Notes under the pieces: model-generated
What the model was told of the DNA's origin: nothing
The model's database searches: none
What the model saw: only the letters and a program-made list of their open reading frames with translations
Translations under genes and position numbers: made by a program
Source: an uncultured Chloroflexia bacterium
GTDB lineage: Bacteria; Chloroflexota; Limnocylindria; QHBO01
Direction: 5' to 3'
Length of the DNA stretch: 64,000 bases
NCBI GenBank assembly: GCA_963825525.1
Contig: CAWGTN010000002.1
Span: forward strand, 393,021 to 457,020
Shown: positions 800 to 50,663 of the stretch, in pieces
Numbering within the stretch: the stretch's first letter is position 1
Layout: the number at the start of each line of letters is the position of its first letter

Positions 800-2340
800 G
801 ACACCCTCCCGAAATCGATCAGGCCGATCGTGAGGTTGCCCAGGCCGCGCAGGCCGTCGGCCACCAACCACCAATTCTCGTCATACGACCACGGAATGAC
901 CGGCGCCTCCTCCGCCACGCGCTCCTCGACCGCGTCGTACGCGCGGCCGACCTCGTCTTCGGCTGCCCCCGCGGCCGCGTCCAGCAGTCGAACGAAGTCG
1001 GCGTCGCGCCATCGCCCGTAGTTGCTCAGTGCGTCCGGCTCGAGGAGAAGGCCGTACAGCGCGTGCGGAGACGCGTAGTCGGCGATCCAGTTGATCGTGA
1101 AGATCTGCGGCGGTCTCGACTCCAGGTCCTGGAGAAATGCCCCGGCACCGGGAGTCTCCGTCTCGATGGTCACGCCCAGCTCTTCGCGCCATACGGCGAC
1201 AGCCGGGTCAACAAAGAGCCCGTAGGCGTTGACCGTGATCGTGCCCAGGTCCGCCCGATCCTCGTACCCGGCCTCGTCGAGCAATTGGCGGGCGCGGGCT
1301 GGATCGCTCGCCAGGCGCGGGCTGAAGCCCTCTGGCCAGATGGCGGGAGGCACGATGCTCGCCGCCGCCATCGATCCACCGCCCTCCGACAGCGGCACCA
1401 GGCGCTCCCGGTCGAGTGCAAGGCTGAACGCCAGGCGCACGCGGGCATCGTCGAACGGCGGACGCGACGTGTCGAATCCGAAGTAGCTGATGGTGAGCGG
1501 CTCGGCGGCATGCAGCCGCTTGCCGAGGTCGCGGTCATAGGCAATCCAGGTGGCGTCCGAGCCGGCCACCGGCGCCAGGTCGACGTTCCCGTCCGCGAAC
1601 GCGTTCACCGATCCGCCGTCAGCACCTCCCACCCACCGAACCTCGTCGATCGGAGGCGGACCGGCGACGTAGCGCGGGTTTGCCTTGAGCACGACATCGG
1701 CGCCATCGAGGCCATCGATGACGTAGGGGCCGCTGCCGACGAAGGCATCCGGGTTCTGCCAGGTCGGCGTCGCATCGGCCGTCGCCGGGACGACGAACGT
1801 GGTCGGAGTTGCCACGATGTCAAGAAAGTACGAGGCCGGGTGCCGAAGGGTGACGATCAGGGTTCGATCATCGGGCGCCGCGATCGCGACCTCGTCCGCC
1901 TCGATCTCCCCGGCGATGCGCTCCGGCGCGCCACGGATGATGCTCAGCACATCGGGCGCCGTTGCACTCGTGGCCGGGTCCAGCAGGCGAAGCCACGAGC
2001 GTCGGACATCCTCGGCCACCAGCGGATCGCCATCGCTGAACTCGAGATCGGGTCGAATCGCGAACTCATAGGTGAGCCCGTCGTCGCTGATCTCCCACCC
2101 GGAGGCGAGAGAGGGGTACGGCTCGCCGGTCTCGTCCAGCCGCGTCAACCCGGCATACACCTGGAGCAGGAACTGCACGTCGCCGGCGTTGATGATGAAC
2201 GCCGGATCGAGGGTGCTCGGCGCTCCGCCCAGGTAGCGGAGGGGCGGGCCGGCGGCGCGCGCGCTGCTGCCCGGAAGCGCCACGGCCAGCACGACAGCGC
2301 CCGCCGCGACCAACGCGGCTACCCGTGTCAGATGTCGCAT
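787..2340 (-). CDS. ABC transporter substrate-binding protein, family 5 (peptide/nickel, OppA/DppA-like)
   Basis: 517-aa ORF with an N-terminal signal peptide and length and composition typical of cluster C binding proteins; co-oriented with the metalloprotease. Confidence 0.85.
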   Translation of the reverse strand: MRHLTRVAALVAAGAVVLAVALPGSSARAAGPPLRYLGGAPSTLDPAFIINAGDVQFLLQVYAGLTRLDETGEPYPSLASGWEISDDGLTYEFAIRPDLEFSDGDPLVAEDVRRSWLRLLDPATSATAPDVLSIIRGAPERIAGEIEADEVAIAAPDDRTLIVTLRHPASYFLDIVATPTTFVVPATADATPTWQNPDAFVGSGPYVIDGLDGADVVLKANPRYVAGPPPIDEVRWVGGADGGSVNAFADGNVDLAPVAGSDATWIAYDRDLGKRLHAAEPLTISYFGFDTSRPPFDDARVRLAFSLALDRERLVPLSEGGGSMAAASIVPPAIWPEGFSPRLASDPARARQLLDEAGYEDRADLGTITVNAYGLFVDPAVAVWREELGVTIETETPGAGAFLQDLESRPPQIFTINWIADYASPHALYGLLLEPDALSNYGRWRDADFVRLLDAAAGAAEDEVGRAYDAVEERVAEEAPVIPWSYDENWWLVADGLRGLGNLTIGLIDFGRVSWDG

Positions 2341-2405
2341 GCGGGCTCCATTGGCGAGGCGGCCAGGATGAGAGCTCGACGCACGGCGGCTAGTATACGG
2401 TCGCC

Positions 2406-2942
2406 GTGCAGCCCGTCCATGAACACCGATTTCAACCCCAGCCCGCGGGCAGTCTGACCCTGCGCCAGTTCGTCGAATCTCTTCGCCGATGGACGCCGGA
2501 GATGCGCCAGATGGTGCAGATCGCGCTCACTCGCACGGCGGAAGAACGCGGGACCTACCTCCAGCAGTTCCATGCCGGCCATCACGAGCGGCAGCCCGGA
2601 CCACTCGACGGCTTCATGCGATGGGCGTACTCCGACCCGCGGCTGGAGGACATCCCCCTCCTGCTGGCCGAGCTGGACCGCACCGATGGGGACTACGCGG
2701 GCGCGCTGGAGCACGAGGCCGATGTCCTCGTCCGGGAACGCGCTCATGGCAAGTCGGCGGCTCAGCGCGTGGCGGACTACCTCGCCCTGCTCGGCATGGA
2801 GACGAGCGATCGCGTCCGCGCCGCGGTGGCAAGCCTGCTTCCGCCGGAGACGCCGGCCCCGGCCGTTACCGCCACCATCCGGCAGATGCGCCGCAGATGG
2901 CTCGAGCTGTATGGCGACGATCCCTTCTTCGGCGAGGATTGA
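2406..2942 (+). CDS. hypothetical protein
   Basis: 178-aa ORF with protein-like composition and strong G/C preference at third codon positions; the overlapping minus-strand ORF is Arg/Gly-rich nonsense. Confidence 0.55.
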   Translation: MQPVHEHRFQPQPAGSLTLRQFVESLRRWTPEMRQMVQIALTRTAEERGTYLQQFHAGHHERQPGPLDGFMRWAYSDPRLEDIPLLLAELDRTDGDYAGALEHEADVLVRERAHGKSAAQRVADYLALLGMETSDRVRAAVASLLPPETPAPAVTATIRQMRRRWLELYGDDPFFGED

Positions 2943-2943
2943 C

Positions 2944-3564
2944 GTGAGGTCGCGGCGCACGCTGGGGTGGGCGTTGATCGCCTACGGCATGCTCGGCATC
3001 GCACTCATCGTGGGCGGAGCACCGGCCGGCCTGTCGCTGGCGGCGAGCGTCGAACGACTCGCGGTCACGGCCGACGACACGCTCCGCGCGGCCGTGACGA
3101 GTACCGAGGCCGCCGCGGCAGCATTCGTGAACGTGGATGGCAGTCTCGCTCAGGCGGAGTCATCGGCAGGGTCGGCCGCCCAGCTCTCGCGCGACGCATC
3201 GGGCACGCTGGCCTCACTCGCGGCCGCCATGGAGCTCTCGGTGTTCGGCGTTCAGCCGCTGTTGCCGCTGGCCGGCGAATTCGAGACCAGCGCCAGCCAG
3301 GCATCGGCTCTGGGCGATGAGCTGGCGGATGTGGCGGGTTCGATGGGCGGAACCCGGGAGGACGTGGCCCGCATCGGCACCGAGCTCAGTGGGTTGAGCA
3401 CCGAGCTCGGCAAGCTCAGGGAAGCGGGCGGGAGCGGTAGTGCTCCCCCTCCGATCCGCGCGTTCGTCCTGCTCCTGCTCGCCTGGCTGATGGTTCCGGC
3501 GGTCGGCGGCATCGTGGGTGGCGCCGCGCTCCTCAGATCCGGGATGCCACGCTCAACGACCTGA
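2944..3564 (+). CDS. membrane protein (N- and C-terminal TM helices, Ala/Ser/Glu-rich central region)
   Basis: GTG at 2944 lies 1 nt after the stop of the preceding gene and is preceded by GAGGAT. The product begins MRSRRTLGWALIAYGMLGIALIVGG. The in-frame 5' extension of ORF 2572..3564 is non-protein-like. Confidence 0.55.
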   Translation: MRSRRTLGWALIAYGMLGIALIVGGAPAGLSLAASVERLAVTADDTLRAAVTSTEAAAAAFVNVDGSLAQAESSAGSAAQLSRDASGTLASLAAAMELSVFGVQPLLPLAGEFETSASQASALGDELADVAGSMGGTREDVARIGTELSGLSTELGKLREAGGSGSAPPPIRAFVLLLLAWLMVPAVGGIVGGAALLRSGMPRSTT

Positions 3565-6155: not shown

Positions 6156-6986
6156 TGCGACCGATCTGGAAGGGCGCAATCAGCTTCGGGATGGTCACCA
6201 TCCCGGTGAAGGTCTACACGGCCACCGAGGGGAAGGACGTGCGGTTCCGGCTCCTCCACAAGACGGACGGAGCGCCGATCGAGGAGAAGCGGTTCTGCAC
6301 CGAGGATGGGAAGGAAGTGGCCTGGGATGACCTCGTCCGTGGATACGAGGTCAGCAAGGGCGAGTTCGTGATCCTGGAGCCCGACGAGATCGACGCAGCC
6401 AAGCCTGAAAGCAGCACGACGATCGACATCGGCGACTTCGTGGAGGCTTCGGAGATCGACGCCGTCTACTTCGAGAAGAGCTACTTCCTCGAGCCGACCG
6501 GGGTCGGTGCCAAGCCCTTCAGCCTCCTGCGCCGCGCGCTCGAGGAGACCGATCGAGTGGCCCTGGCACGCGTGACACTCCGAACCCGGGAGCGGCTCGC
6601 CACGCTCCGCACGTACGAGGACACGCTGCTCCTCGAGACGATGTTCTGGCCCGATGAGATTCGATCGACCGGTGCGCTGGACCTTCCCGAAGGCGAGGAG
6701 GCGCGCGTCCGTGGCAAGGAGCTCGACATGGCGCGAACCCTCATCGGCGATCTGGCCGACCGGTTCCGTCCCGAGCGCTATACCGACACATACCGGACGG
6801 CGCTCGAGAGCCTGATCGAGCAGAAGATGCGGGGCGAGGTAAAGAACTCGAAGCGTCGAAAGGCCGAGCCCAAGGTCATCGACCTCATGGAGGCGCTCAA
6901 GGCGAGTGTTGCGGAGGCCGGCAAGAAGGGCACGAAGCGTCGCTCCGACCGCGGGCCGGCAGAAGAAGCGCCGCTCCGCCGCCTGA
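6155..6986 (+). CDS. ku: Ku family non-homologous end-joining DNA-binding protein; 3' end inferred assuming a 1-nt indel near 6953
   Basis: N-terminus MRPIWKGAISFGMVTIPVKVYTATE is diagnostic. As given, the frame has no stop until 7795 and runs antisense through the convergent gene. A 1-nt change in the GGG run at 6953-6955 yields the K/R-rich tail ...RRSDRGRQKKRRSAA followed by TGA at 6984-6986. Confidence 0.8.
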
Positions 6987-6991
6987 GTCGG

Positions 6992-7672
6992 CTAGAAGCG
7001 CTCCTGCTCTTCCTCGAGGTCGTCGCCGCCGACGCTCCCCGACCGCTCGGGTTCCGCGGATCCGCCGACACCGAGCGTGACGTCCGCCCGCGACGTCCCC
7101 TCCACTTCGCGACGCTCACCCGGAGTGAAGCTGTCGCTCGTGTCGTCGGGCGTCAGGTCGCCGGTGGCGCCGGTCATGCCGCCACCACCGGCGTTGCCGC
7201 GATCGGTCATCGCTGGCTTCCCGCCTCGACCTCGCCGCGCCAGGCGCCCGATCTCGGAGCCGCGGCTCTCGATGAACTCCTTGAAGCGTTCGAGGTCGCC
7301 CTTGACCTGACGGTCGAGGAACCCGAGCGCGCTTCCGACGGTCTCGACCAGTCCCTCTGGGTCAGCGTCCAGCTGCAGGGTCACCCGGGTCGTCTCGTCG
7401 TCGATGCGGTGAAAAGTCACGACGCCGGCGTTATCGGCGCCCGAGGTGGAGTTCCACGCCACGCGCTCGTCGGCATGCTGCTCGGTGACCTCGGCGTCCC
7501 ACTCCTTTTCCTTGCCCGCCACCTCGGCAACCCAATGGAGATGGGTGTCATCGGTCTGCGTGACCGACTTCACGCCTTCCATGAAGTGAGGGAAGTCCTC
7601 GAACTGGGTCCACTGGTTGTAGGCGGTGCTGACGGGCACCTTGACGTCGATGCTCTCTACGACGGAAGCCAT
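6992..7672 (-). CDS. SRPBCC (polyketide cyclase/dehydrase, START-like) family protein with Gly/Asp-rich C-terminal tail
   Basis: ATG at 7672 with GAGGAG 7 nt upstream; product begins MASVVESIDVKVPVSTAYNQWTQFEDFPHFMEGVKSV. Confidence 0.8.
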   Translation of the reverse strand: MASVVESIDVKVPVSTAYNQWTQFEDFPHFMEGVKSVTQTDDTHLHWVAEVAGKEKEWDAEVTEQHADERVAWNSTSGADNAGVVTFHRIDDETTRVTLQLDADPEGLVETVGSALGFLDRQVKGDLERFKEFIESRGSEIGRLARRGRGGKPAMTDRGNAGGGGMTGATGDLTPDDTSDSFTPGERREVEGTSRADVTLGVGGSAEPERSGSVGGDDLEEEQERF

Positions 7673-7840: not shown

Positions 7841-10057
7841 GTGCAGTTCACTCCCCCGAGCGTCCCCCGTAAGCCGAGTGCGTGGCTCGCTCTCGGGTGG
7901 CTGGCCGCGATGATCCTGGTCGCCTCGATCGCGCCGGCGCGGGTATCGGCGCACGCCGAGCTCGTGACCTCCGACCCGATCGCGAACAGCTCACTTGTCG
8001 AGGCCCCGTCGACCCTGACGGTGACGTTCAGCGAACGGATCGATCCTGATCGGGCCAGCATCGAGGTACTCGATCTCCAGCTGCGCCCGGTCGCGGGCGT
8101 CGGGCCGGCGCGGGTCGACCCCGAGGGCGTCACCGTCACCTTGGACCTGCCCGTCCTGGATCCGGACGTCTACACCGTCCGCTATGACGTGGTATCGACG
8201 ACCGATGGCCACACGACCAGTGGGTTCTATGCGTTCATCGTCGATCCGACCGGTGCCCAGGCGCCGCCGAGCTCGACGCCCACCGCAACGTCCCCCTCCG
8301 CGGACGCGTTGGCGGTTGCTGCCCGCTGGCTGAGCCTGCTGGGCACGCTGATCGGGCTCGGCACCCTGGTGACCTGGTGGCACTCCGGCCGCCCGCTGGG
8401 CTTCCTGGTGCCCTGGCGCCTCGTGGCCGTGTCATCGTTCGTGGGCGCAGGGGCGCTGGCGGTCTACCTCATGCTCTCCGCCCGCACCATTCCCCCGGGG
8501 CCGGGTGGCCTGCCATTCGACCCTGCGGCCGCGTTCGGGTGGACGCCGTTTGCGGTGGCGATGCGAGTGGCCCTGCTGGGCGGACTGCTGGCCGGGTCGC
8601 TTGCCATCCTCGGAGCGATACGAGGGTCAGCCACCGGTCGGTGGTTGGTCGTCGCCGTGGCGCTTGCGGTCGGCACCTCGCTGGCGGGAATGAGCGCCGG
8701 CGGCCATGGATCGTCCCTCGGTGGACCCGTCAACGGGGCGATCGACTGGCTCCACCTGGTGGCGGCGGCTGCGTGGCTCGGGGGCATCCCGGCGATCTAC
8801 GTCATGGGGCGAAGAACCGCGACGCGGGACGTGCTGCGCCGGCATGGCAGGCTGGCCCTGGTTGCGGCCCCACTCGTCATCCTGACCGGGGTCGCCAACT
8901 CCCCCCTGGTCCTGGGCTCGGCGCGCGGCCTGGTGGCCAGCGAGTACGGCAACCTGCTGCTCGCCAAGGCCACGTTGGCCAGCATCGCGCTCGCAATCGG
9001 CGCTGTGAACCACTTCCTCCTCCGCGGTCGCGGGCGCGGGAGCGCGTCCCTCCTGGTCGCCGCCGAGCTCTCGGTGGCGGTGGTGGCCGTGCTGGCTGCC
9101 GCCACGATGGTGACGGTCCAGCCAGCTGCGGCCCGCCAGGACGTTGTGATCGGGCCGGCCATTCAGCCCGCGCACTTCTTCGGTGAGGCCGGTCCCACGT
9201 CGATCCATGCCTCGGTCAGCATCCCAGCCCCGGGCCGCCAGACGTACCAGGTCACCCTTCGCGACGCCGATACGGGAGCGCCCCGCGACGACATCCAGAA
9301 GGTCTTCCTCGAGTTCACGCCAGTGGAGACCATCGGGCTTGGCACCGAACGCATCGAGCTGGAGCCGAACACGCTCGAGGGTCTGTACTCGACGGCCGCG
9401 GCGGCCACCCCGGTCATCGGCGAGTGGCAGATGCGCGTTGTCGTCCGGCGCGCCGGTGCGCTCGACGAGTCCGTCGAGTTCGGGATGGCGGTACAGGAGC
9501 CCGGCCCCGCCCTGCGTGCCCCGCCGCCGGATACCGGCATCGGCGTCCCGTCACCGATGGCGGCGCTGTGGACGGCGCTGCCCTCGGGGTTGTCGGGCTG
9601 GATCCCGGCCTTCGCGTTGCTCGGGTTAGGCATATGGCTCGGCCGCGTTCATGCGGGACTCGCTCGCCTGCGCATCCCGGTCCTGGCGCTGGCCGTGATC
9701 CTGTTCCTCGGCGTCGGATCTCGTTCCCTGGTGGAGGGTGCGAATCGGCCGACGGTGTCGGACCTGGCGCCATACGCAAGTGCCGCCGCCGGGGATCCCG
9801 AGATCGGCGAGCGCATCTACCGGGCGAACTGCGCGGCGTGCCACGGGACCGATGGCACCGGCGACGGTCCGGTGCAGACGGCCGTGACACCGAGGTCGCT
9901 TGCCGATCGGGTCCCCGCCCTCTCCGACGCCGAGGTGTCGTACCGTATTGCGACGGGCACCGCGGGCACGCCGATGCCGGCCTTTGCCGCCAGCCTGACC
10001 GAACAGGAGCGCGATGACCTCGTGAGCTACCTTCGGGCCAGGTGGGGCACGCCGTGA
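7841..10057 (+). CDS. copper resistance CopC-CopD fusion protein with C-terminal class I cytochrome c domain
   Basis: Signal peptide followed by HAELVTSDP, which is the CopC N-terminal His after cleavage. A polytopic CopD-like region follows. The C-terminus carries CAACHG (CXXCH). Confidence 0.85.
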   Translation: MQFTPPSVPRKPSAWLALGWLAAMILVASIAPARVSAHAELVTSDPIANSSLVEAPSTLTVTFSERIDPDRASIEVLDLQLRPVAGVGPARVDPEGVTVTLDLPVLDPDVYTVRYDVVSTTDGHTTSGFYAFIVDPTGAQAPPSSTPTATSPSADALAVAARWLSLLGTLIGLGTLVTWWHSGRPLGFLVPWRLVAVSSFVGAGALAVYLMLSARTIPPGPGGLPFDPAAAFGWTPFAVAMRVALLGGLLAGSLAILGAIRGSATGRWLVVAVALAVGTSLAGMSAGGHGSSLGGPVNGAIDWLHLVAAAAWLGGIPAIYVMGRRTATRDVLRRHGRLALVAAPLVILTGVANSPLVLGSARGLVASEYGNLLLAKATLASIALAIGAVNHFLLRGRGRGSASLLVAAELSVAVVAVLAAATMVTVQPAAARQDVVIGPAIQPAHFFGEAGPTSIHASVSIPAPGRQTYQVTLRDADTGAPRDDIQKVFLEFTPVETIGLGTERIELEPNTLEGLYSTAAAATPVIGEWQMRVVVRRAGALDESVEFGMAVQEPGPALRAPPPDTGIGVPSPMAALWTALPSGLSGWIPAFALLGLGIWLGRVHAGLARLRIPVLALAVILFLGVGSRSLVEGANRPTVSDLAPYASAAAGDPEIGERIYRANCAACHGTDGTGDGPVQTAVTPRSLADRVPALSDAEVSYRIATGTAGTPMPAFAASLTEQERDDLVSYLRARWGTP

Positions 10058-17739: not shown

Positions 17740-17815
17740 TGGCGCCCCCGGAGGGATTCGAACCCCCGACGCCCGCCTTAGGACGGCGGCGCTCTATCCA
17801 CTGAGCTACGGGGGC
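17740..17815 (-). tRNA. tRNA-Arg (anticodon CCT)
   Basis: Manual fold: acceptor GCCCCCG/CGGGGGC, D-arm GCTCAGTGGATAGAGC, anticodon stem CCGCC/GGCGG with loop GTCCTAA, T-arm GGGGGTTCGAATCCCTC, encoded CCA. Confidence 0.9.
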
Positions 17816-24837: not shown

Positions 24838-25704
24838 TCAGTCGTGTGGCCCCTGGAGCTCCACCTGTCCATCGTGCACCCGGGCACGGTAGGTCACCTG
24901 GCGAGTCGACGCCGGTCCGTGGACCACGGCACCGTCGCGGAGACGGAACACCGATCCGTGCCAAGGACAGCTGATCGTCCCGTCGCGCAGCTCACCTTCC
25001 GAGAGCGGGCCACCGGCGTGCGAGCAGGTGTCCTTGAGCGCATGGACCAGGTCGCCACGGCGGACGAGGACCACCTTGGTCGCGCCGAAGCTCACCTGGG
25101 TGGCCTCGCCATCGGGCACCTCGGCGACCGGAGCGACCGCGGTGAACTCCTTCGCGCGCTTGCCACGGCTGAATGCGTTGTGGTTGACCATGTAGCCGTA
25201 CTTGAAGACGACATGGCCGCCGATGTAGGAGCCGACCGAGATGATCCCGTAGCCGATCAGCATCGGCCAGAACGCTCCGTCCACATTCCCGCCGAGCCGC
25301 AGCGCGAGCGAGATGCCGAATCCGGCCATCCCGACGAAGTTGATGATGCCGTGGAGCCCGACCACGTTGCGCTCGTTGCCCGATGCCGTGTCCTTGAAAT
25401 CGGTCCAGCCCGACAGGATGGATCCGACGCCCGCGGCATAGGTCAGCGCAAGTACCCAGGTCGCCGCGTCCTCCGTGCCGGACGCTCCGAACACGACGCG
25501 CAGCACGTCCAGGAAGACGACGGCCGTCGCGCCGCCGATGACGACGTCGACGAGCACCGGGTGGAGCGAATGGCCGAGCCACGAGCCGTTGAGGAGATCC
25601 TGGAGCAGCTTGCCGGGTCTCCCCAGGACGCGAAAGACCGCGTTGAGGAACCCGGCCAGCCAGTTCAACAGGCCGGCGAGTGGCTTGGCGGCACGCTCGA
25701 TCAT
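24838..25704 (-). CDS. DUF2231-type membrane domain fused to Rieske [2Fe-2S] domain protein
   Basis: ATG at 25704 shares a base with the stop of the upstream aminotransferase (TGATG). The C-terminus carries CSHAGGPL...CPWHGS. Confidence 0.8.
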   Translation of the reverse strand: MIERAAKPLAGLLNWLAGFLNAVFRVLGRPGKLLQDLLNGSWLGHSLHPVLVDVVIGGATAVVFLDVLRVVFGASGTEDAATWVLALTYAAGVGSILSGWTDFKDTASGNERNVVGLHGIINFVGMAGFGISLALRLGGNVDGAFWPMLIGYGIISVGSYIGGHVVFKYGYMVNHNAFSRGKRAKEFTAVAPVAEVPDGEATQVSFGATKVVLVRRGDLVHALKDTCSHAGGPLSEGELRDGTISCPWHGSVFRLRDGAVVHGPASTRQVTYRARVHDGQVELQGPHD

Positions 25705-27155
25705 CAGCCCGTCAGCTCGGCCGCGAACTCGCCGAAGACCTCGATGTAGCGATCGATGTCGGCGTTGGTGTGCTGCACCGAGAGCGTCCACTGGTCGTCC
25801 GGACCGGGCGGAAGCAGGATCCCGCGGTTCGCCAGGTAAAAGAAGCTGGCTGCCCACAGGTCGGAGTCCAGGTCGACCAGGGTTCGGTAGTTGGTGACGC
25901 GCTCCGGGGTGAACATCACGCAGCCCTTGGGACCGACGTTGATCGCGTAGCCCGGCAGCCCATGGTCATCGATCACGGACTGGCTGCCTGTCGTGAGCCG
26001 GTCGGCCATCGCGTTGAGCACCGGATAGGCGTCCTTGGTGAGGATCTGGGTGAGCGTCACGACGCCGGCGGTCATCGACAGCGGATTCCCGTTGAAGGTG
26101 CCCAGGTGTGCGACGCGGGTCGCACCGCTCGGAAGCGTCGAGCGCTCCATCCCCGAGCCGAGCGCCCCACTCATGCCGGCGAAGTGCTGGCTGCCCTCGA
26201 GCGTCTCGATGACGCGCATCACCTCGGCACGCCCGCCGAAGGCGCCGATCGGGATGCCGCCGCCGATGCTCTTTGCCAGGCAGAAGAGATCGGGCTTCAC
26301 GCCGTAGTACTCGTAGGCCCCGCCCCAGGCGATCACAACGCCGGTCTTGACCTCGTCGAAGATGAGCACGACGCCGTGCTCGGTTGCCAGCTCGCGAACG
26401 CGCTGCAGGAATCCCGGCTCGGGCGGGACGACGCCGATGTTGAACTGGACGGGCTCCACGATGATCGCGGCGATCTCGCCCTCGTGGGCCTGGAGGATCG
26501 CCTCGAGCATGTCGGGCTCGTTGAACGGAGCGATGACGGTCTCCGCGATCCGGCTGCGCGGGATGCCGGCACTTGCCGGCACGGTGGCCGGAGCGTCGAT
26601 CGGTCCCATGGCCTCGCGCGGCGGCTGAATGCTGACCAGCACGTCGTCATGGTGGCCGTGATAGCCGCCTTCGAACTTGATGATCTTCTCGCGTCCGGTG
26701 TAGCCGCGGGCCACGCGGATGGCGTCCATGGTGGACTCGGTGCCCGAGTTGCTGAAGCGCACGGAATCGGCGCCAAAGCGGGCTCGGATCTCCTCGGCCA
26801 GCGTCACGCCGTCCTCGACCGGGAAGGTGTAGCACGTGCCGTTCGCCACGCGCCGCTGAAGGGCCTCCGCCAGCAGCGGATGCGAGTGACCGGCGGCCAG
26901 CACGCCGAACGCCATGTCGAAGTCGATGTACTCGTTGCCGTCCGCGTCCCAGATCCGGCTGCCCCGGGCGTCGCCCATGAACAGCGGATATGGGTCGTAG
27001 GCCTGAAACGAGCTTGCGACGCCAAGCGGCATGGACTCGCGCGCGCGATCGAAGAGCGCCTTGCTCTTTGCGGTTCGCGCCCGATACGCCGCCTCTTCCC
27101 GCGCGCCGATCTCGTTGACGCGCGCCCGATCGATTTCGTGCCTGGTGACCGTCAC
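25704..27155 (-). CDS. class III (aspartate aminotransferase fold) aminotransferase, glutamate-1-semialdehyde aminomutase-like
   Basis: GTG at 27155 with AGGAGG 6 nt upstream. PLP-lysine region FDEVKTG. Confidence 0.85.
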   Translation of the reverse strand: MTVTRHEIDRARVNEIGAREEAAYRARTAKSKALFDRARESMPLGVASSFQAYDPYPLFMGDARGSRIWDADGNEYIDFDMAFGVLAAGHSHPLLAEALQRRVANGTCYTFPVEDGVTLAEEIRARFGADSVRFSNSGTESTMDAIRVARGYTGREKIIKFEGGYHGHHDDVLVSIQPPREAMGPIDAPATVPASAGIPRSRIAETVIAPFNEPDMLEAILQAHEGEIAAIIVEPVQFNIGVVPPEPGFLQRVRELATEHGVVLIFDEVKTGVVIAWGGAYEYYGVKPDLFCLAKSIGGGIPIGAFGGRAEVMRVIETLEGSQHFAGMSGALGSGMERSTLPSGATRVAHLGTFNGNPLSMTAGVVTLTQILTKDAYPVLNAMADRLTTGSQSVIDDHGLPGYAINVGPKGCVMFTPERVTNYRTLVDLDSDLWAASFFYLANRGILLPPGPDDQWTLSVQHTNADIDRYIEVFGEFAAELTG

Positions 27156-27165
27156 GGTCGCCCTC

Positions 27166-27690
27166 CTAGCGAGCTCCCCATTGGTAACTTTCCTTGACAA
27201 AGCGCAGCTCGACGAGCGTCTCGGTCGAACGGATACCGTCGATCCCCGCGAGTCGTTCGGTCAGCACGCGCAACAGGTGATCATTGTCCTCGCACACGAT
27301 CTCGCACACGAGGTCATAGCGCCCGGCGGTGATGACGAGGTACGTCACCTCGTCCAGCTTCGCGATCTCGTCGGCAACCTCCGTCAGGCGCGCCGCCTCG
27401 ACCTTGAGGCCGATGAGGGCCGGCTGCTGAAAGCCCATGGCCAAAGGATCGGTGACCCCCACGATCTGCACCACGCCTCGTCCGATCAGCCGCTCGGCGC
27501 GCTGCCGGACGGTGGCCTCGGGAACGTCAAGCTGACGTCCGATCTGAGCGTACGGCCGTCGACCATCCAGCTGAAGACACTGGATGATGCGCTTGTCGAG
27601 GTCGTCGAGAATGGGCCGCCGCCCCGGTTGCTGGATCGATCGCACCGCCATGGCGAGAAGAGTACTCAGCAGCTGGGAGACGGTCAACAT
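27166..27690 (-). CDS. Lrp/AsnC family transcriptional regulator
   Basis: Helix-turn-helix ILDDLDKRIIQCLQLDGRRPYAQIGRQLDVPEATVRQRAERL followed by a RAM domain. The start is ATG 27690 or 27651. Confidence 0.85.
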   Translation of the reverse strand: MLTVSQLLSTLLAMAVRSIQQPGRRPILDDLDKRIIQCLQLDGRRPYAQIGRQLDVPEATVRQRAERLIGRGVVQIVGVTDPLAMGFQQPALIGLKVEAARLTEVADEIAKLDEVTYLVITAGRYDLVCEIVCEDNDHLLRVLTERLAGIDGIRSTETLVELRFVKESYQWGAR

Positions 27691-27854
27691 TCCGCAACAT
27701 TCGAGGTCCGATTCTACGGATTCCGCGAGGTTTGACGGAATCCGTGGGGTTTCGAGGGTGCTGTTCAGTGGCGTTGGCTCAGGTGGGTGGGTTGGGGGCC
27801 GCGGACGGCGGCGGCGACGGCGGCAGCGACGCTTTGGGTGATCCGGTGCCGCTC

Positions 27855-28252
27855 GACTTGTCAACTGCACCCCACACGCGCATTAGCGGGGGCAGAGGCC
27901 GGCGGCGACCCGTGGCCACGCTCAGCAACGCCGCCCGAGACTCCTGATTACCCGCTAATGCGAACCAGGCGAGCAGTTGTCAGGGCGCGGCGCGGGGACC
28001 GGTGAGCTGCATCCGTGGTGCGCGCTACCCGGCCGCAGAGACCAGACGCGAGCCGGGCCAGACGACCCAGCGCCGCCCGACTTGTCAACTGCACCCCCCA
28101 CGCGCATTAGCGGGCGCCGAGGCCGGCGGCGAGCAGTGCCCACGCTCAGCAACGCCGCCCGAGACTCCTCACTACCCGCTAATGCGAACCAGGCGAGCAG
28201 TTGTCAGGGCGCGGCGCGGGGACCGGTCAACTGCACCTCACACGCGCATGAG
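27855..28252. repeat. tandem direct repeat of a ~150-bp unit (2 full copies + partial third; ~223-bp period), each carrying a 12-bp inverted repeat and a nested helix
   Basis: Copy 1 is 27855-28004, copy 2 is 28078-28227, and a partial third copy is 28228-28252. The copies are ~90% identical. Inverted arms cgcattagcggg / cccgctaatgcg lie ~65 nt apart, enclosing GGCGGCG...CGCCGCC. Confidence 0.8.
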
Positions 28253-28288
28253 CTGGCCGCGGAGACGCAACGCTCCAGCTCTCCAGCG

Positions 28289-30511
28289 TCAGTCCCCCCC
28301 GGTCTCCGCCGCACCCACCTCGCGCTTCCACGCCCCCGTCGCATCGGCGAGCAGCTCCGCGACATCGCGGACCGCGACATCGGTGCGGTCGAGGTCCGTG
28401 GTGCCATCTCGCAGCATGATCAGGCAGAAGGGACACGCGGTCGCGATCTCGTCCGGTGTCTTCTCGAGCGCCTGCTCCACGCGCTTGTGGTTGATGCGCG
28501 TGCCCTCGCGCTCCTCCATCCACATCCTCGCGCCGCCGGCGCCGCAGCACATCCCCTTGCGGTGGTGAAGGTCCATCTCGACCACGCTCTGGCCCGGCAC
28601 GGAATCCACCACGCGACGGCCCTCGTCGTAGACCTCGTTGTAGCGTCCCAGGTAGCACGCGTCGTGATACGCGATCACGGCGTCATGGTGCTCCTCGGGC
28701 ACCAGCCGGCCATCAGCGACCAGCCGATCGAGCAGCTGGGTGTGGTGGATGACCTGGATCCCGGTGAGGCCGAACTGCGGGTACTCGTTCTTGATGGTGT
28801 TGAAGCAGTGCGGGCAGGTGGCCACGATGGTCGAGATGCCGTGCTCGGCGTGCGCGGCAGACAGGGTCGCGACGTTCTCCTCGGCGAGCATCTGGTAGAG
28901 GTACTCGTTGCCGGCCCGCCGCGCCGGATCGCCCGTGCAGGTCTCCTGGGCGCCGAGCACCGCGAACGGTATCTCGGCCTGGTTCAGGAGCTGCGCCATG
29001 GCACGCACCACCTTCCGATTGCGATCGTCGAATGCGCCGGCGCACCCGACCCAGAACAGGATGCGCCCGCCGAGCACGTCGCCCGTGGGATCGGACTCGT
29101 GAATCGTCCTCCATGGCGTGGTGCCGTCCGTGCTGCGCCGGGGCGGATCGGCATCGGCCAACAGGGGAACGTCCAGGCCCTTTGCCCAGTCCATGCGCGA
29201 TGATTTCGGCTGGCCCCAGGGGTTGCCGGCGTTCTCCATGTTGCGAAATGCCGCATTGAGCTCCTTGGGGAATCGGCTCTCCTCGAGCACCGCGTTTCGG
29301 CGAATCTCGACGATCGTGTCAACGTGCTCGATGAGCACCGGGCAGCCCTCGACACACCAGCCGCAGGTCGTGCACTGCCAGACCGCCTCCTCCGGGATCA
29401 CGTTGTCCATGAGGGGCAGGGTGAGCGCCTCCTCCGCGCGGCCCCGGGCCAGCGACAGCGCATCCTCCGAGGCCGATGCACCACCGTTGGCTCCCCCCTT
29501 CCACGCACGCTGGGCCGATGCGGCCGCTGCCAGCGCCGTCTCGGCCGATGCGATCTGATCGCGCAGTCCTTCCATGAGGTGCTTGGGCGAGAGCGTCTTG
29601 CCCGTCATCGAGGCCGGACAGAACTCCATGCAGCGTCCGCACTCCGTGCACGCCAGGCCGTCGGAGAGGTGACGCCAGGTCAGGTCCTGCAGGCCCTTGG
29701 CACCGAAGACGGGAAGCTCCTCGCCTTCCTCGGGCTCCGCCTCGAGGTCCATCTTGCGGAGCGCGCCACGCGGCTCGAGGTTGCGGAAATAGACGTTGGG
29801 CTCGCTGCTGATGATGTGGAGGTGCTTGCTGTACGGCAGGTAGGCCCCGAATCCAAGGACCAGGATGATGTGCGACCACGCCATGACCCCGAAGCCGATG
29901 GTGGCGGCTTCCCGGCCGATCGGCTCGAGTGCCAGGCTCAGCGGGCCGGCCAGGGGCGCCCAGGCACGAGCCGGGTCCTCTGGCTCCAGCACGAATCCGA
30001 ACGCGTCCCCCAGCCACTCGGTGAGCACGATGCTGAAGATGAGGCCCAGGATGATGAAGGCGTCACGCGTGAGGGCCAGCCGCGCCGGACGAATCACGGT
30101 GCGACGAATGACGAAGTACGCGACCGAGGCCAGTACCAACCCGACGAAGACGTTGGCGAACAGGACGATCACGCTCCAGAAGAAGCCGCCCAGCGGCCAT
30201 CCGACGACGGTCTCCACCAGCCCGTTGGTCAGGTAGTTGCCGGTCGTGGCGAGGAGCACGATGAACCCCCAAAACACGAAGGCGTGCGTCAGCCCTGGAC
30301 CGGGGTCCTGGAGCAGCCGGCGCTGACCGAACACGAACACGCCGAGGGCCTTGATCCGCTGCGGGACGCGGTCAAAGCGATCGAGCGGCCGCCCGGCGCG
30401 CACCACGGCCAGGTGCCAACGGGCACGGCGCCAGAACAGAATGCCGGCCGCCACGATCGGGATGATGATCAGCGGATACGCCGGAATGGACGCTTCCATG
30501 AGTCGCGCCAT
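28289..30511 (-). CDS. membrane-bound Fe-S oxidoreductase (HdrD/GlpC-like: NarI-like TM domain + 2x[4Fe-4S] ferredoxin motifs + two CCG domains; Rv0338c-type)
   Basis: 740 aa. Six N-terminal TM helices; ferredoxin motifs [12 protein letters not shown] and [12 protein letters not shown]; CCG-type cysteines CPHCFN and CPFCLIM. Confidence 0.85.
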
Positions 30512-36753: not shown

Positions 36754-36830
<77 letters not shown>

Positions 36831-36861
36831 GACCGACGGCGGTCAGTATAGCGGCCACCGC

Positions 36862-48073: not shown

Positions 48074-48997
48074 TCAGGCTCTCGGATGGGCCCGCGAGTA
48101 GACCTCGCGGACACGCTCGCCGGTCAGGTGGGTGTAGAGCTGGGTGGTGCTGATGCTAGCATGGCCGAGCAGCGCCTGGACCACTCGCAGATCCGCTCCG
48201 CCTTCGAGCAGATGGGTCGCGAAACTGTGGCGAAACGTGTGCGGAGTCACGTGGCCGCCCACCCCCGCGGCCTCTGTCCAGCGCCGGACCAGCCGCCACA
48301 CCGACTCACGACCCACCCGCGTGCCGCGCGGCCCCACGAAGACCGCCGGCGTCGGTCGCCCCGCCGTCCACTCGGTGCGCGGTCCTGACCGATAGCGGTG
48401 CAACCGCTCGCGCGCTTCGTCCCCCATCGGCACCCGCCGTTCCTTGTTGCCCTTGCCGATGACCCGCACCTGCTGGCTCGCGAGATCAACGCGATCGGTG
48501 TCCAGCCCCACGAGCTCGCTGACCCGCAGCCCGCACGCGTACAGCAGCTCCATGATCGCCCGGTCCCGGATGCCCATCGGATCATCGGCCGGCGGGGCAT
48601 CCAGGATGCGCACCACGTCGTCCGGTGCGAGGACATCCGGCAGGTAGCTGCCCGGGCGCGGCGCGTCGACGAGGGCGGGCACGTCGCGGGTCGCCAGGCC
48701 CTCACGCAGGGCGAACCGATAGAAGCTGCGCACGGCGGCACTCTTGCGCGCCTGGGTGCTCCCACGCGCTCCCTGTTCCTGAAGCCTCCGCACGAACTCG
48801 ACGAGCGGCCCGGAATCGTCGCGCCAGCGCGTCTCGGCTCGCTCGCCAAACTGCGCGAGATCGCGTCGATAGGCCGCGATGGTCAATGGCGACAGGCCCC
48901 GCTCGACCCGCAGCTCCAGCAGGAATGCCTCGATCGCCGATTCAAGGGCCGGATCGAGGGCCGGGTCAACGGCCAGGTCGGGCGCCGAGTCAGGCAT
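48074..48997 (-). CDS. xerD: site-specific tyrosine recombinase XerD
   Basis: ATG at 48997; catalytic motifs ...HTFRHSFATHLLEGGADLR...LGHASISTTQLYTH. Confidence 0.85.
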   Translation of the reverse strand: MPDSAPDLAVDPALDPALESAIEAFLLELRVERGLSPLTIAAYRRDLAQFGERAETRWRDDSGPLVEFVRRLQEQGARGSTQARKSAAVRSFYRFALREGLATRDVPALVDAPRPGSYLPDVLAPDDVVRILDAPPADDPMGIRDRAIMELLYACGLRVSELVGLDTDRVDLASQQVRVIGKGNKERRVPMGDEARERLHRYRSGPRTEWTAGRPTPAVFVGPRGTRVGRESVWRLVRRWTEAAGVGGHVTPHTFRHSFATHLLEGGADLRVVQALLGHASISTTQLYTHLTGERVREVYSRAHPRA

Positions 48998-50663
48998 CGA
49001 CGCCGGCTGTCGCCGCCGCCCGCAGCAGCGCATCGGCGGCGGCCCGCGCCTCGGTGCCCGGTTCAGCTCCCCCGAGCATGGCGGCGAGCTCCGCGGCGCG
49101 TGCCGGCCGGTCGAGAACCTCGGCATACGTCGTGGTGCGGTCGCCTCGAATTCGCTTTCCGACAACGATGTGTGTGTCTGCCAGTGCCGCGACCTGCGGC
49201 AGGTGGGTCACGCACAGCACCTGGTGATAGCGGCTCAGGGCGCGCAATCGCTCTCCCAGGGCCGCGGCATTTCGGCCACCAACACCAGCATCGACTTCGT
49301 CGAACACCAGCAGCGGCGTATCGTCCGCGGCGGCCAGCACGACCTCGAGAGCCAGTGACAGGCGGCTTGCCTCGCCTCCCGACGCGATCCGGGCCAGCGG
49401 ACGAGGCGGCTCACCTCGATTCGGCGCGAAGGTGAACACGACTCGATCCGCGCCGTCGGGTCCGACGTCGGATGCTTCCCGATCGATCCCGAATGCCCCG
49501 CCTTCGATGCCCAGTGGAGGCAGCTCGGCATTGACGTGCGCGCTCAACCGGGTGGCCGCTTCGACTCGAGCGGCCGACAGCCCCTCGGCCGCGGCGGACA
49601 GCTCCGATCGACGCGCGGCCTCCTCGACGCGCAGGCGCTCGCGCGCCCCTTCCTGGTTCTCGAGTGCCTCGAGCTCGGCCGCCGCCGCGTCGCCGAACGC
49701 CACCACCGCCTCGAGCGACTCGCCGTACTTGCGGCGCAGCTCGTAGAGGAGCGCGAGCCGCTCCTCTGCCGCTGCCCGGCTCCCCGGGTCGAGATCCACC
49801 GCCTCTGCCAGGCCGCTGGCATCGCGCGCCAGCTCCGCTGCCTCGGCCACCAGCGCCGACGCGCGATCGACCAGGGGTACGAAGCGCTCGTCGTGCTGCG
49901 CCGCGGTCGCCAGGTCGCGTTCGGCGGCGCCCAGGACATCGGTGGCGCCGGAATCCTCGCGCAGCGCCGCAGCGGCCGAGGTCGCCGAGCGGGCGATCGT
50001 TTCCGCATGCTCGGCAGCGCGCAGCTGCGCCTCGAGCTCCGCGTCCTCGCCGATCCGGGGGGCCGCCGCGCCTATCTCCTCGGCCTGGTGGCGCAGCAGC
50101 TCAACGCGGCGTGCCAGCTCGTGGGCATCGGTCAGCAGTTCGGCGGAGGCAGCCACGGTTGCCCGCCACGCCCGGAATCGATCACTCACCACGGCCCGGG
50201 CGGCGTCGAGGCCGCCGAATCCGTCAAGCAGGGCCAGCTGGCGGGCCGGCTGCAGAAGGCGCTGCTGGTCGTGCTGGCCGTGGATCTCGCCGAGATGCGC
50301 CCCGATGGCGGCCAACCCCCCGACCGTGACGGTCCGGTCGTTGACCCTCACGATCGAGCGACCGTCCGCACCCACCTCGCGGCGAATGACGACGCTCCCC
50401 TCTCCCGCCGCGACCACATCATGCATGGCGTGGTCGTCGGGCATTGCCGGCGCGTCGAAGATCGCCTCGACCCGCGCCGCATCCGTCCCGGAGCGCACCT
50501 GGTCGGTGGCAGCTCGGGCGCCGAGCACGAGTGCCACGGCATCGACCACCAACGACTTACCCGCGCCGGTCTCGCCGGTCAGGACCGTGAAGCCGTCGCG
50601 AAGTGGCAGCCGTACCGATTCCACGACCGCCAGGTTCTCTACGGTCAGCTCACGAAGTGCCAT
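48990..50663 (-). CDS. recN: DNA repair protein RecN
   Basis: 557 aa; N-terminal Walker A GETGAGKS and C-terminal signature region. Confidence 0.9.
   Translation of the reverse strand: MALRELTVENLAVVESVRLPLRDGFTVLTGETGAGKSLVVDAVALVLGARAATDQVRSGTDAARVEAIFDAPAMPDDHAMHDVVAAGEGSVVIRREVGADGRSIVRVNDRTVTVGGLAAIGAHLGEIHGQHDQQRLLQPARQLALLDGFGGLDAARAVVSDRFRAWRATVAASAELLTDAHELARRVELLRHQAEEIGAAAPRIGEDAELEAQLRAAEHAETIARSATSAAAALREDSGATDVLGAAERDLATAAQHDERFVPLVDRASALVAEAAELARDASGLAEAVDLDPGSRAAAEERLALLYELRRKYGESLEAVVAFGDAAAAELEALENQEGARERLRVEEAARRSELSAAAEGLSAARVEAATRLSAHVNAELPPLGIEGGAFGIDREASDVGPDGADRVVFTFAPNRGEPPRPLARIASGGEASRLSLALEVVLAAADDTPLLVFDEVDAGVGGRNAAALGERLRALSRYHQVLCVTHLPQVAALADTHIVVGKRIRGDRTTTYAEVLDRPARAAELAAMLGGAEPGTEARAAADALLRAAATAGVDA

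Follow-up and report, generated by a model that had tools for sequence, protein, structure and literature searches.

The stretch of DNA analysed here (hereafter the window) is 64 kb long and houses a repeat array in the 637-bp intergenic gap between a Fe-S/CCG oxidoreductase gene and lrp. The gene context given by the original prediction, with a Fe-S oxidoreductase gene on one side and an lrp-aminotransferase-Rieske operon of the minus strand on the other, was confirmed by Pfam. The features of the locus are listed below.

30511..28289, minus strand: CCG/4Fe-4S oxidoreductase gene, by Pfam
28223..28256, minus strand: solo right arm CCAGCTCATGCGCGTGTGAGGTGCAGTTGACCGG upstream of W_b, by pattern match with two mismatches
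28077..28211, minus strand: full unit W_b, by covariance-model match (117 bits, E=1.1e-24)
28197-28205, 28175-28186, 28141-28149, 28103-28114 and 28083-28092, minus strand: boxes A-left, B-left, C, B-right and A-right of W_b
27999..28032, minus strand: decayed solo right arm CCGGGTAGCGCGCACCACGGATGCAGCTCACCGG between W_a and W_b, read from the sequence
27853..27987, minus strand: full unit W_a, by covariance-model match (116.6 bits, E=1.4e-24) and alignments A1-A3
27973-27981, 27951-27962, 27917-27925, 27879-27890 and 27859-27868, minus strand: boxes A-left, B-left, C, B-right and A-right of W_a
27848..28235, no strand: 224-bp tandem duplication, (solo arm + full unit) x2, by blastn and repeat search
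27687-27682 (TTGACC), 27664-27659 (TACTCT, N17) and 27651-27649 (ATG), minus strand: lrp promoter-like element, by conservation
27651..27166, minus strand: Lrp/AsnC gene (lrp), by Pfam
27200..25704, minus strand: class-III aminotransferase gene, by Pfam
25857..24838, minus strand: Rieske/DUF2231 gene, by Pfam

Two tandem copies of about 90% identity had been predicted, and this was borne out: in a blastn of the unit against the window 27848-28011 and 28072-28235 are 93.3% identical over 164 bp (E=9e-67) with a period of 224 bp, and a repeat search returned a 210-nt pair at 86% with a spacing of 224. The predicted inverted repeat of 12 nt, CGCATTAGCGGG/CCCGCTAATGCG, is exact and occurs at four sites (27879-27890, 27951-27962, 28103-28114 and 28175-28186), with 0.42 matches expected by chance and four or more reached in none of 100 shuffles, but the arms of the window units to which it belongs are longer, measuring 37-44 nt at 70-73% complementarity. 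Outside the array it has no match in the 64-kb window, and blastn with a word size of 7 gave no additional unit copy there. TTGTCAACTGCACC is found at 27858 and 28082, and a third start with two mismatches at 28224. The latter had been described as the beginning of a third copy (28228-28252); the sequence is indeed similar (28226-28253 and 27860-27887 are 92.9% identical by blastn), but it constitutes a solo arm at 28223-28256. Nor is the 73-bp spacer between the copies unique, as had been stated. It holds the decayed solo right arm of 27999-28032, homologous to this supposed third start and weakly alignable with 28223-28256 in a global alignment, and a 15-nt spacer, TCCCCGCGCCGCGCC, common to both array halves, follows each solo arm. 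As a decayed solo arm lies ahead of each full unit, the 224-bp period consists of a solo arm plus a full unit, duplicated. This duplication, at 93% identity, is the most recent local-duplication event of the arrays. A GGC/GAC-rich microsatellite with periods of 3, 6 and 12 nt (GACGGCGGCAGC x2.3, 27797-27831) lies between the array and the boxes that precede lrp.

Family orientation is defined as that of the window's minus strand. The unit is a palindrome of about 125 bp, made of two inverted 32-bp arms around a 60-bp interior, in which each arm consists of box A (TGACAACTGC), 10 nt and box B (CGCATTAGCGGG). The complete layout reads YYCCYTG-ACAACTGC (box A), N10, CGCATTAGCGGG, about 26 nt, CTGAGCGTG, about 25 nt, CCCGCTAATGCG (box B'), N10 and GCAGTTGTCA (box A'). 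The central element, box C (CTGAGCGTG), starts 54-55 nt past CAACTG and 57 nt before CAGTTG in copies of standard length, which places it at the exact centre. Inspection of alignments A2 and A3 showed the arms to be without internal palindrome. The interior measures 59-61 nt in 14 of the 17 copies of alignment A2 and is essentially random in sequence; any alignment of these variable interiors carries no meaning. Longer interiors were found in L009, with some 20 extra nt, and in both copies of L005, with some 30 (L-numbers denote loci). A small ORF in the unit was ruled out by the length variants of the interior (59, 61, +20 and +31 nt) together with in-frame stops. The second helix of the original prediction, GGCGGCG...CGCCGCC, is real in the window but present there only, and is not conserved across the family.

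Members of the family turned up on 11 further contigs, all from Limnocylindria-type Chloroflexota; their intergenic contexts include at least eight unrelated ones, and most form tandem doublets with partial units. A genome scan of one genome per species with the exact pattern CAACTGC-N10-CGCATTAGCGGG yielded four real loci, each in a MAG of Chloroflexota that bears the label Chloroflexia or Limnocylindria, while L003 (Paenibacillus) and L006 (Thermoleophilia) were discarded as chance pattern matches in coding or AT-rich DNA. A three-motif pattern scan of JGI metagenomes added five contigs, and the same kind of scan of viral contigs gave no matches. A plasmid or phage origin was rejected given this null result and the lack of any plasmid or phage match by blastn in distant mode. 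The Fe-S protein that flanks the array has homologs in Limnocylindria, which assign the window to this class, the best match being 91% identical. Covariance model R1, built from 17 copies, recovers all of its source copies at 74-123 bits as well as a second doublet in L001. The neighbour genes are unrelated and include glyoxalases, NDH-2, MreB, DUF885, L33, a PD40 protein, an ABC-2 transporter and a CCG protein.

Outside the array R1 detected no unit in the window (64 kb), and about 200 kb of DNA from elsewhere in Limnocylindria likewise yielded none; sites are therefore sparse, with about one for every 100 kb sampled. Local values range from one site in the 64-kb window to three sites with six copies within the 16 kb examined of one MAG. 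The interiors of the L001 and L002 copies, which belong to one MAG, are unrelated and there is therefore no sign of a recent burst. Orientation with respect to genes is mixed: the units are sense to both neighbours at the site between the Fe-S gene and lrp (hereafter FeS-lrp) in the window, L012 and L013, and also in L005 and L011; the L007 unit is antisense to both neighbours and the L022 unit is inverted at the FeS-lrp site, several of these calls being based on GC3-based gene calls. A full-text literature search gave nothing on repeats in Limnocylindria and nothing relevant on MITEs of Chloroflexi. This family of palindromic intergenic repeats of about 125 bp, from a soil Chloroflexota group, is previously undescribed.

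Orthologous sites show considerable turnover. At the FeS-lrp site the window has two units and two solo arms, L012 has one unit and one solo arm, L013 has two units, L022 has one decayed unit in opposite orientation (6874-7008) and L021 has a remnant. The layout of solo arm, spacer and unit is common to the window and L012, which argues for common descent. The site is empty in L014 and L016, with an intergenic region of about 155-165 bp; L013, which is filled, has L016 as its closest relative. A GNAT acetyltransferase gene sits at this site in L015 (12199-12822) and L023 (6028-6600). Both lrp and the aminotransferase gene are missing in a further lineage, L017-L020 (12220-12465), where the Fe-S gene is directly followed by the Rieske gene. 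The FeS-lrp junction appears a generally variable spot. The other orthologous site precedes a Glyoxalase_6 gene (87-90% amino-acid identity). Units occupy this site in L011 and L001, L024 and L026 have none there, and L025 retains no more than a solo right arm (GCGCCGCGATGCACGTCAACCGAAACCG) as remnant. Two glyoxalase genes of L025 are separated by 60 bp (9940-10001). The L001 orthologs of this pair, with 86% and 90% identity, are 2.1 kb apart (921-3047), and between them lie one doublet, the gene pair padR-HAAS and another doublet in the same orientation. Deletions and inversions, and in at least one case the insertion of genes, are found in association with the repeat.

The boxes are conserved to a degree that differs strongly from the rest of the unit. 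Mean identity between loci is 0.95 for A-left, 0.89 for B-left, 0.77 for the C window, 0.75 for B-right and 0.77 for A-right, and TGAGCGTG within the box C window is nearly invariant; the interiors have 0.33 identity vs a random expectation of 0.27. In many loci the search patterns had themselves selected for boxes A, B and C. No pattern had selected the FeS-lrp copies of the window, L012 and L013, whose box identities are, in the same order, 1.00, 0.94, 0.76, 0.89 and 0.73 vs 0.28-0.39 for the interiors. At four-fold codon sites of the flanking Fe-S gene identity is 0.48-0.64 vs 0.42 at random, which is near saturation and means that the genomes compared are distant. The boxes stay conserved in copies that were apparently inherited vertically. 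Such in-situ conservation is easier to reconcile with a function for the host than with a purely selfish element.

One suggestion of the original prediction was a tandem cis-regulatory RNA leader, with Rfam and covariation across homologous loci among the checks named. The arms are truly complementary, since 80.9% of cells pair in the 17 copies vs 31-41% when the partner is slid by 1-3 columns. The covariation score is 0.118, below the shuffled mean of 0.133, and 434 of 500 column shuffles scored at least as high; RNAalifold found no compensatory pairs and retained just the two arm helices. Changes in the arms are largely one-sided, with the right arm decaying and the left one staying. Of the 17 copies, 15 retain the left CAACTGC, which is lost only from the decayed L001_B1 and L022; its partner is broken at one position in seven of the 17, with one compensated change. 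On neither strand are the interiors more stable than dinucleotide shuffles (mean z -0.06 and +0.13), whole units have folding z-scores of -0.5 to -2.1 and single-sequence folds vary between copies. Conserved internal helices are ruled out by this variation, by interior z-scores around zero and by RNAalifold, which returns arm helices only. A known RNA family was likewise rejected: Rfam at gathering score (window and 12 loci) and at E<=10 (region) gave tRNAs and a chance match of 14.7 bits, and no match for the unit. The only Rfam matches in the window are two tRNA genes, at 17743-17815 and 36758-36831, both on the minus strand.

A consensus scan of the units gave no sigma-70-type promoters and no intrinsic terminators. 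A promoter inside the arm, made of a TTGACA-like box A followed after 17 nt by CATTAG, was dismissed as the conserved final T is missing and the consensus scan was negative. A hammerhead or other ribozyme core was rejected too, because CUGAGCG departs from CUGANGA and Rfam gave no match. The absence of covariation, the one-sided changes and the shuffle-like folding mean that what is conserved are sequence boxes at a fixed spacing and not base pairing. Judged by sequence, this pattern would point to recognition by a protein.

The control region of lrp is separate from the array. Nine orthologous loci, with or without repeat units, have two or three GCGGAATCCGC boxes ahead of lrp; the boxes are followed by TTGACC-N17/18-TACnCT at 6-8 nt before the lrp ATG. 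The window boxes lie around 27690-27760 and include a 19-bp TRF repeat at 27716-27752; the whole control region spans 27649-27760 of the minus strand in the window, 3650-3760 in L012, 12640-12740 in L013, 12270-12380 in L014 and 12285-12385 in L016. The lrp promoter is thus probably located between the array and the start codon, at a place where the simple consensus scan did not call a promoter. The lrp transcript would then be nearly leaderless, and the arrangement suggests an autoregulated gene. The units lie upstream of this probable promoter, therefore a leader RNA for lrp is excluded; the leader also disagrees with the negative Rfam and covariation results and with the inverted orientation in L022 and L007. 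An array of Lrp binding modules, also proposed, is not supported either: the lrp-proximal GCGGAATCCGC boxes are unrelated to boxes A, B and C and are retained in loci that lack the unit, and units are also found at loci that have no lrp nearby. The GCGGAATCCGC boxes are the probable Lrp operators, and differ in sequence from the repeat unit. We infer that the repeat element is not part of lrp regulation, lrp having its own promoter and operator-like boxes.

The third suggestion, a MITE-like element duplicated in place, came closest to the evidence. The dispersed family, the TIR-like arms expected of a MITE, the presence or absence at orthologous sites and the local duplication all agree with it, but target-site duplication, a parent IS and a high copy number were not found in the DNA sampled. 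No consistent target-site duplication is present among 18 copies at offsets of -8 to +8 and k=2-8, where the best 2-mer occurs in 5 of 18, which is chance level. Exact arm-pattern scans of genomes, metagenomes and viral contigs, in which diverged ends are undetectable, gave short units and no parent IS. There were no solo arms elsewhere in the examined loci, and no full-length element with unit arms in about 400 kb. Neither the window nor L001, L002, L004 and L005 contains a transposase, and no transposase, RAYT or PF01797-type gene was identified among about 80 neighbouring ORFs. A GTAG head occurs in none of the 18 copies; CGTC/GACG was seen in 5 of 18, in flanking bases. A CRISPR or TIGR-like guide array was rejected, interior segments having no second match in the window.

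In architecture the unit appears closest to REPINs and to the BIME-1/RIP or Correia elements. REPINs, in the work of Bertels & Rainey of 2011 and later studies, are reportedly REP doublets that form hairpins and are mobilised or maintained by RAYT transposases in Pseudomonas and E. coli. The likeness consists in two inverted conserved modules of about 30 nt with a spacer that keeps its length and varies in sequence, a strictly intergenic location as singlets, doublets and tandem clusters, the lack of target-site duplication, and persistence at orthologous sites with presence and absence differing between relatives. Unlike those of REPINs, however, the unit's arms are not short palindromes and have no GTAG/CGTC head; the unit has a nearly invariant central box, no RAYT (Y1 transposase) gene lies near any copy examined and the density is about one per 100 kb, compared with hundreds of REPINs per genome. 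BIME-1/RIP (RIB) of E. coli and the Correia elements of Neisseria are, like the unit, intergenic and of about 100-150 bp, with two inverted terminal modules that flank a conserved motif at the centre, which binds a protein (IHF) in their case. BIME-1/RIP and Correia elements can be co-transcribed as hairpins and can promote rearrangements. They have no sequence relationship with the unit, whose box C does not fit the IHF consensus, and Correia elements in addition differ by TA duplications and by hundreds of near-identical copies.

MITEs and imperfect palindromes of the ERIC type share with the unit a non-coding nature, TIR-like arms, unrelated intergenic sites and insertion polymorphism at orthologous loci, and ERIC is also old, diverged and of low to moderate copy number. 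They differ in that the unit is without target-site duplication and without a parent IS in exact-pattern scans, its interiors are diverged to saturation with intact boxes and its left arm is more conserved than its right. The attC/pdif sites of integrons resemble it as imperfect palindromes of 60-140 bp with a variable centre, and by the one gene pair that is bracketed in L001; the unit ends TGACAAC...GTTGTCA, however, match RYYYAAC/GTTRRRY at AAC/GTT and one further position only, the units form doublets without ORF and no integrase is adjacent. We take box B (GGTTCGCATTA, or GGTGCGCATTA in L005) to resemble the XerC arm of E. coli. A dif/Xer site was nonetheless rejected on geometry, as the inner end of box B faces away from box A and a central region of 6-8 bp is lacking; given this wrong geometry the likeness is treated as coincidence. 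A tyrosine recombinase gene (Phage_integrase with a SAM-like N domain) is located at 48077-49207 on the minus strand, beside NAD kinase (nadK) and FtsJ/TlyA genes and 20 kb from the array; it most likely encodes a housekeeping XerC/XerD that is unlinked to the repeat.

Taken together, the array probably belongs, though our confidence is modest, to a family of non-coding, non-autonomous palindromic repeats of about 125 bp that is REPIN/MITE-like in kind and occupies intergenic regions of Limnocylindria-type Chloroflexota. The boxes would be recognition sites on DNA for a trans-acting protein, which could be a transposase or recombinase, perhaps assisted by a host factor that acts on the central box. 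The target could be double-stranded DNA or a hairpin or cruciform extruded from the arms, and this recognition would keep the boxes intact. The arrays grow by local duplication and would be hot spots at which DNA is duplicated, deleted or inverted and genes are inserted. A bolder version, to which we give a rather small chance, is that the units, far from being junk, form in an uncultured soil lineage a new class of protein-bound genome element whose three boxes at fixed spacing are under purifying selection through saturating divergence and tied to a dedicated enzyme, either in a symbiosis such as that of REPINs and RAYT with a new partner or as a cassette-capturing recombination system, to which the padR-HAAS insertion between arrays in L001 would point. 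That the units are host-selected and immobile cis-acting DNA elements, with boxes serving as operator or architectural sites for a global regulator or nucleoid-associated protein, is rather unlikely. This explanation stays alive because the boxes are conserved in situ across saturated divergence, at two orthologous sites, and it would also suit the fixed 60-bp spacing with free sequence, the dyad symmetry about the central box, the low copy number without target-site duplication or detected transposase, and the several copies that immediately precede a promoter (Glyoxalase_6, ndh, mreB and lrp). Against it, the genes next to the copies share no function, many copies are placed between convergent genes or next to 3' ends of genes, close relatives lack the unit at an otherwise unchanged site (L014, L016, L024-L026), decayed, inverted and partial copies are common, and the tandem duplication and solo arms resemble repeat dynamics and not operator design.

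It seems improbable that the unit functions as a structured RNA, such as a hairpin in a 3'UTR or between cistrons or an sRNA, in which the P1/P2 stem would be an RNase III site, an mRNA stabiliser or a terminator without U-tract and box C a loop recognised by a protein. A stem of 7 bp plus 12-17 bp is possible on both strands, box C is exactly central and both neighbours run in the direction of the unit in the window, L012, L013, L005 and L011. On the family strand G-U-type mismatches outnumber A-C-type ones by about 26 to 12, which is a weak hint only because the count was made by hand and includes related copies. These points are outweighed by the lack of covariation with one-sided decay of the right arm, interiors no more stable than shuffles and whole units only slightly so, the absence of an Rfam family even at E<=10 and of promoter or terminator consensus, the antisense unit of L007 and the inverted one of L022, and an apparently leaderless lrp with its promoter downstream of the array. 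We regard as very improbable a site for site-specific recombination like attC/pdif, where arrays of units bound gene cassettes that are exchanged by a tyrosine or other recombinase. The L001 gene pair between co-oriented doublets, set against the 60 bp with a solo arm in L025, is what one would expect of such a system, as are the inverted array of L022, solo arms as possible recombination footprints and arms that can form a hairpin as in attC. This cassette is however a single instance, the core sites do not fit, the doublets have no ORF between them, no integrase adjoins any array, the sole tyrosine recombinase of the window is Xer-like and distant, and box B, for all its likeness to a XerC arm, does not have the geometry of a dif site.

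Limnocylindria are abundant and uncultured, and a repeat family with a working covariance model provides a marker for their genome dynamics; the sites also flag places where MAG assemblies and annotations are fragile. Since the array is not a riboswitch-like lrp leader, a false lead is removed. With the REPIN/MITE-like reading, conserved boxes and randomised interiors pose the REPIN puzzle of selfish element or beneficial resident in a different architecture and without known partner enzyme, whose identification would be a real result.

Smaller derivatives of the unit were observed at several loci. Mini versions of about 42 nt, comprising little beyond the two outer arm ends and scored at 13-19 bits by R1, adjoin full units in L004 (1177-1218), L005 (4311-4352) and L012 (3374-3416). 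In L022 four tandem 72-bp units (6613-6852) with a box-C-like CGCTGAGCGTGCGAAC directly adjoin the inverted decayed unit, and each of them carries GTTCGCACGCTCAGCG, which corresponds to box C and part of the arm spacer, reversed. By their sequence, these 72-bp units may be a deletion derivative that was amplified separately.
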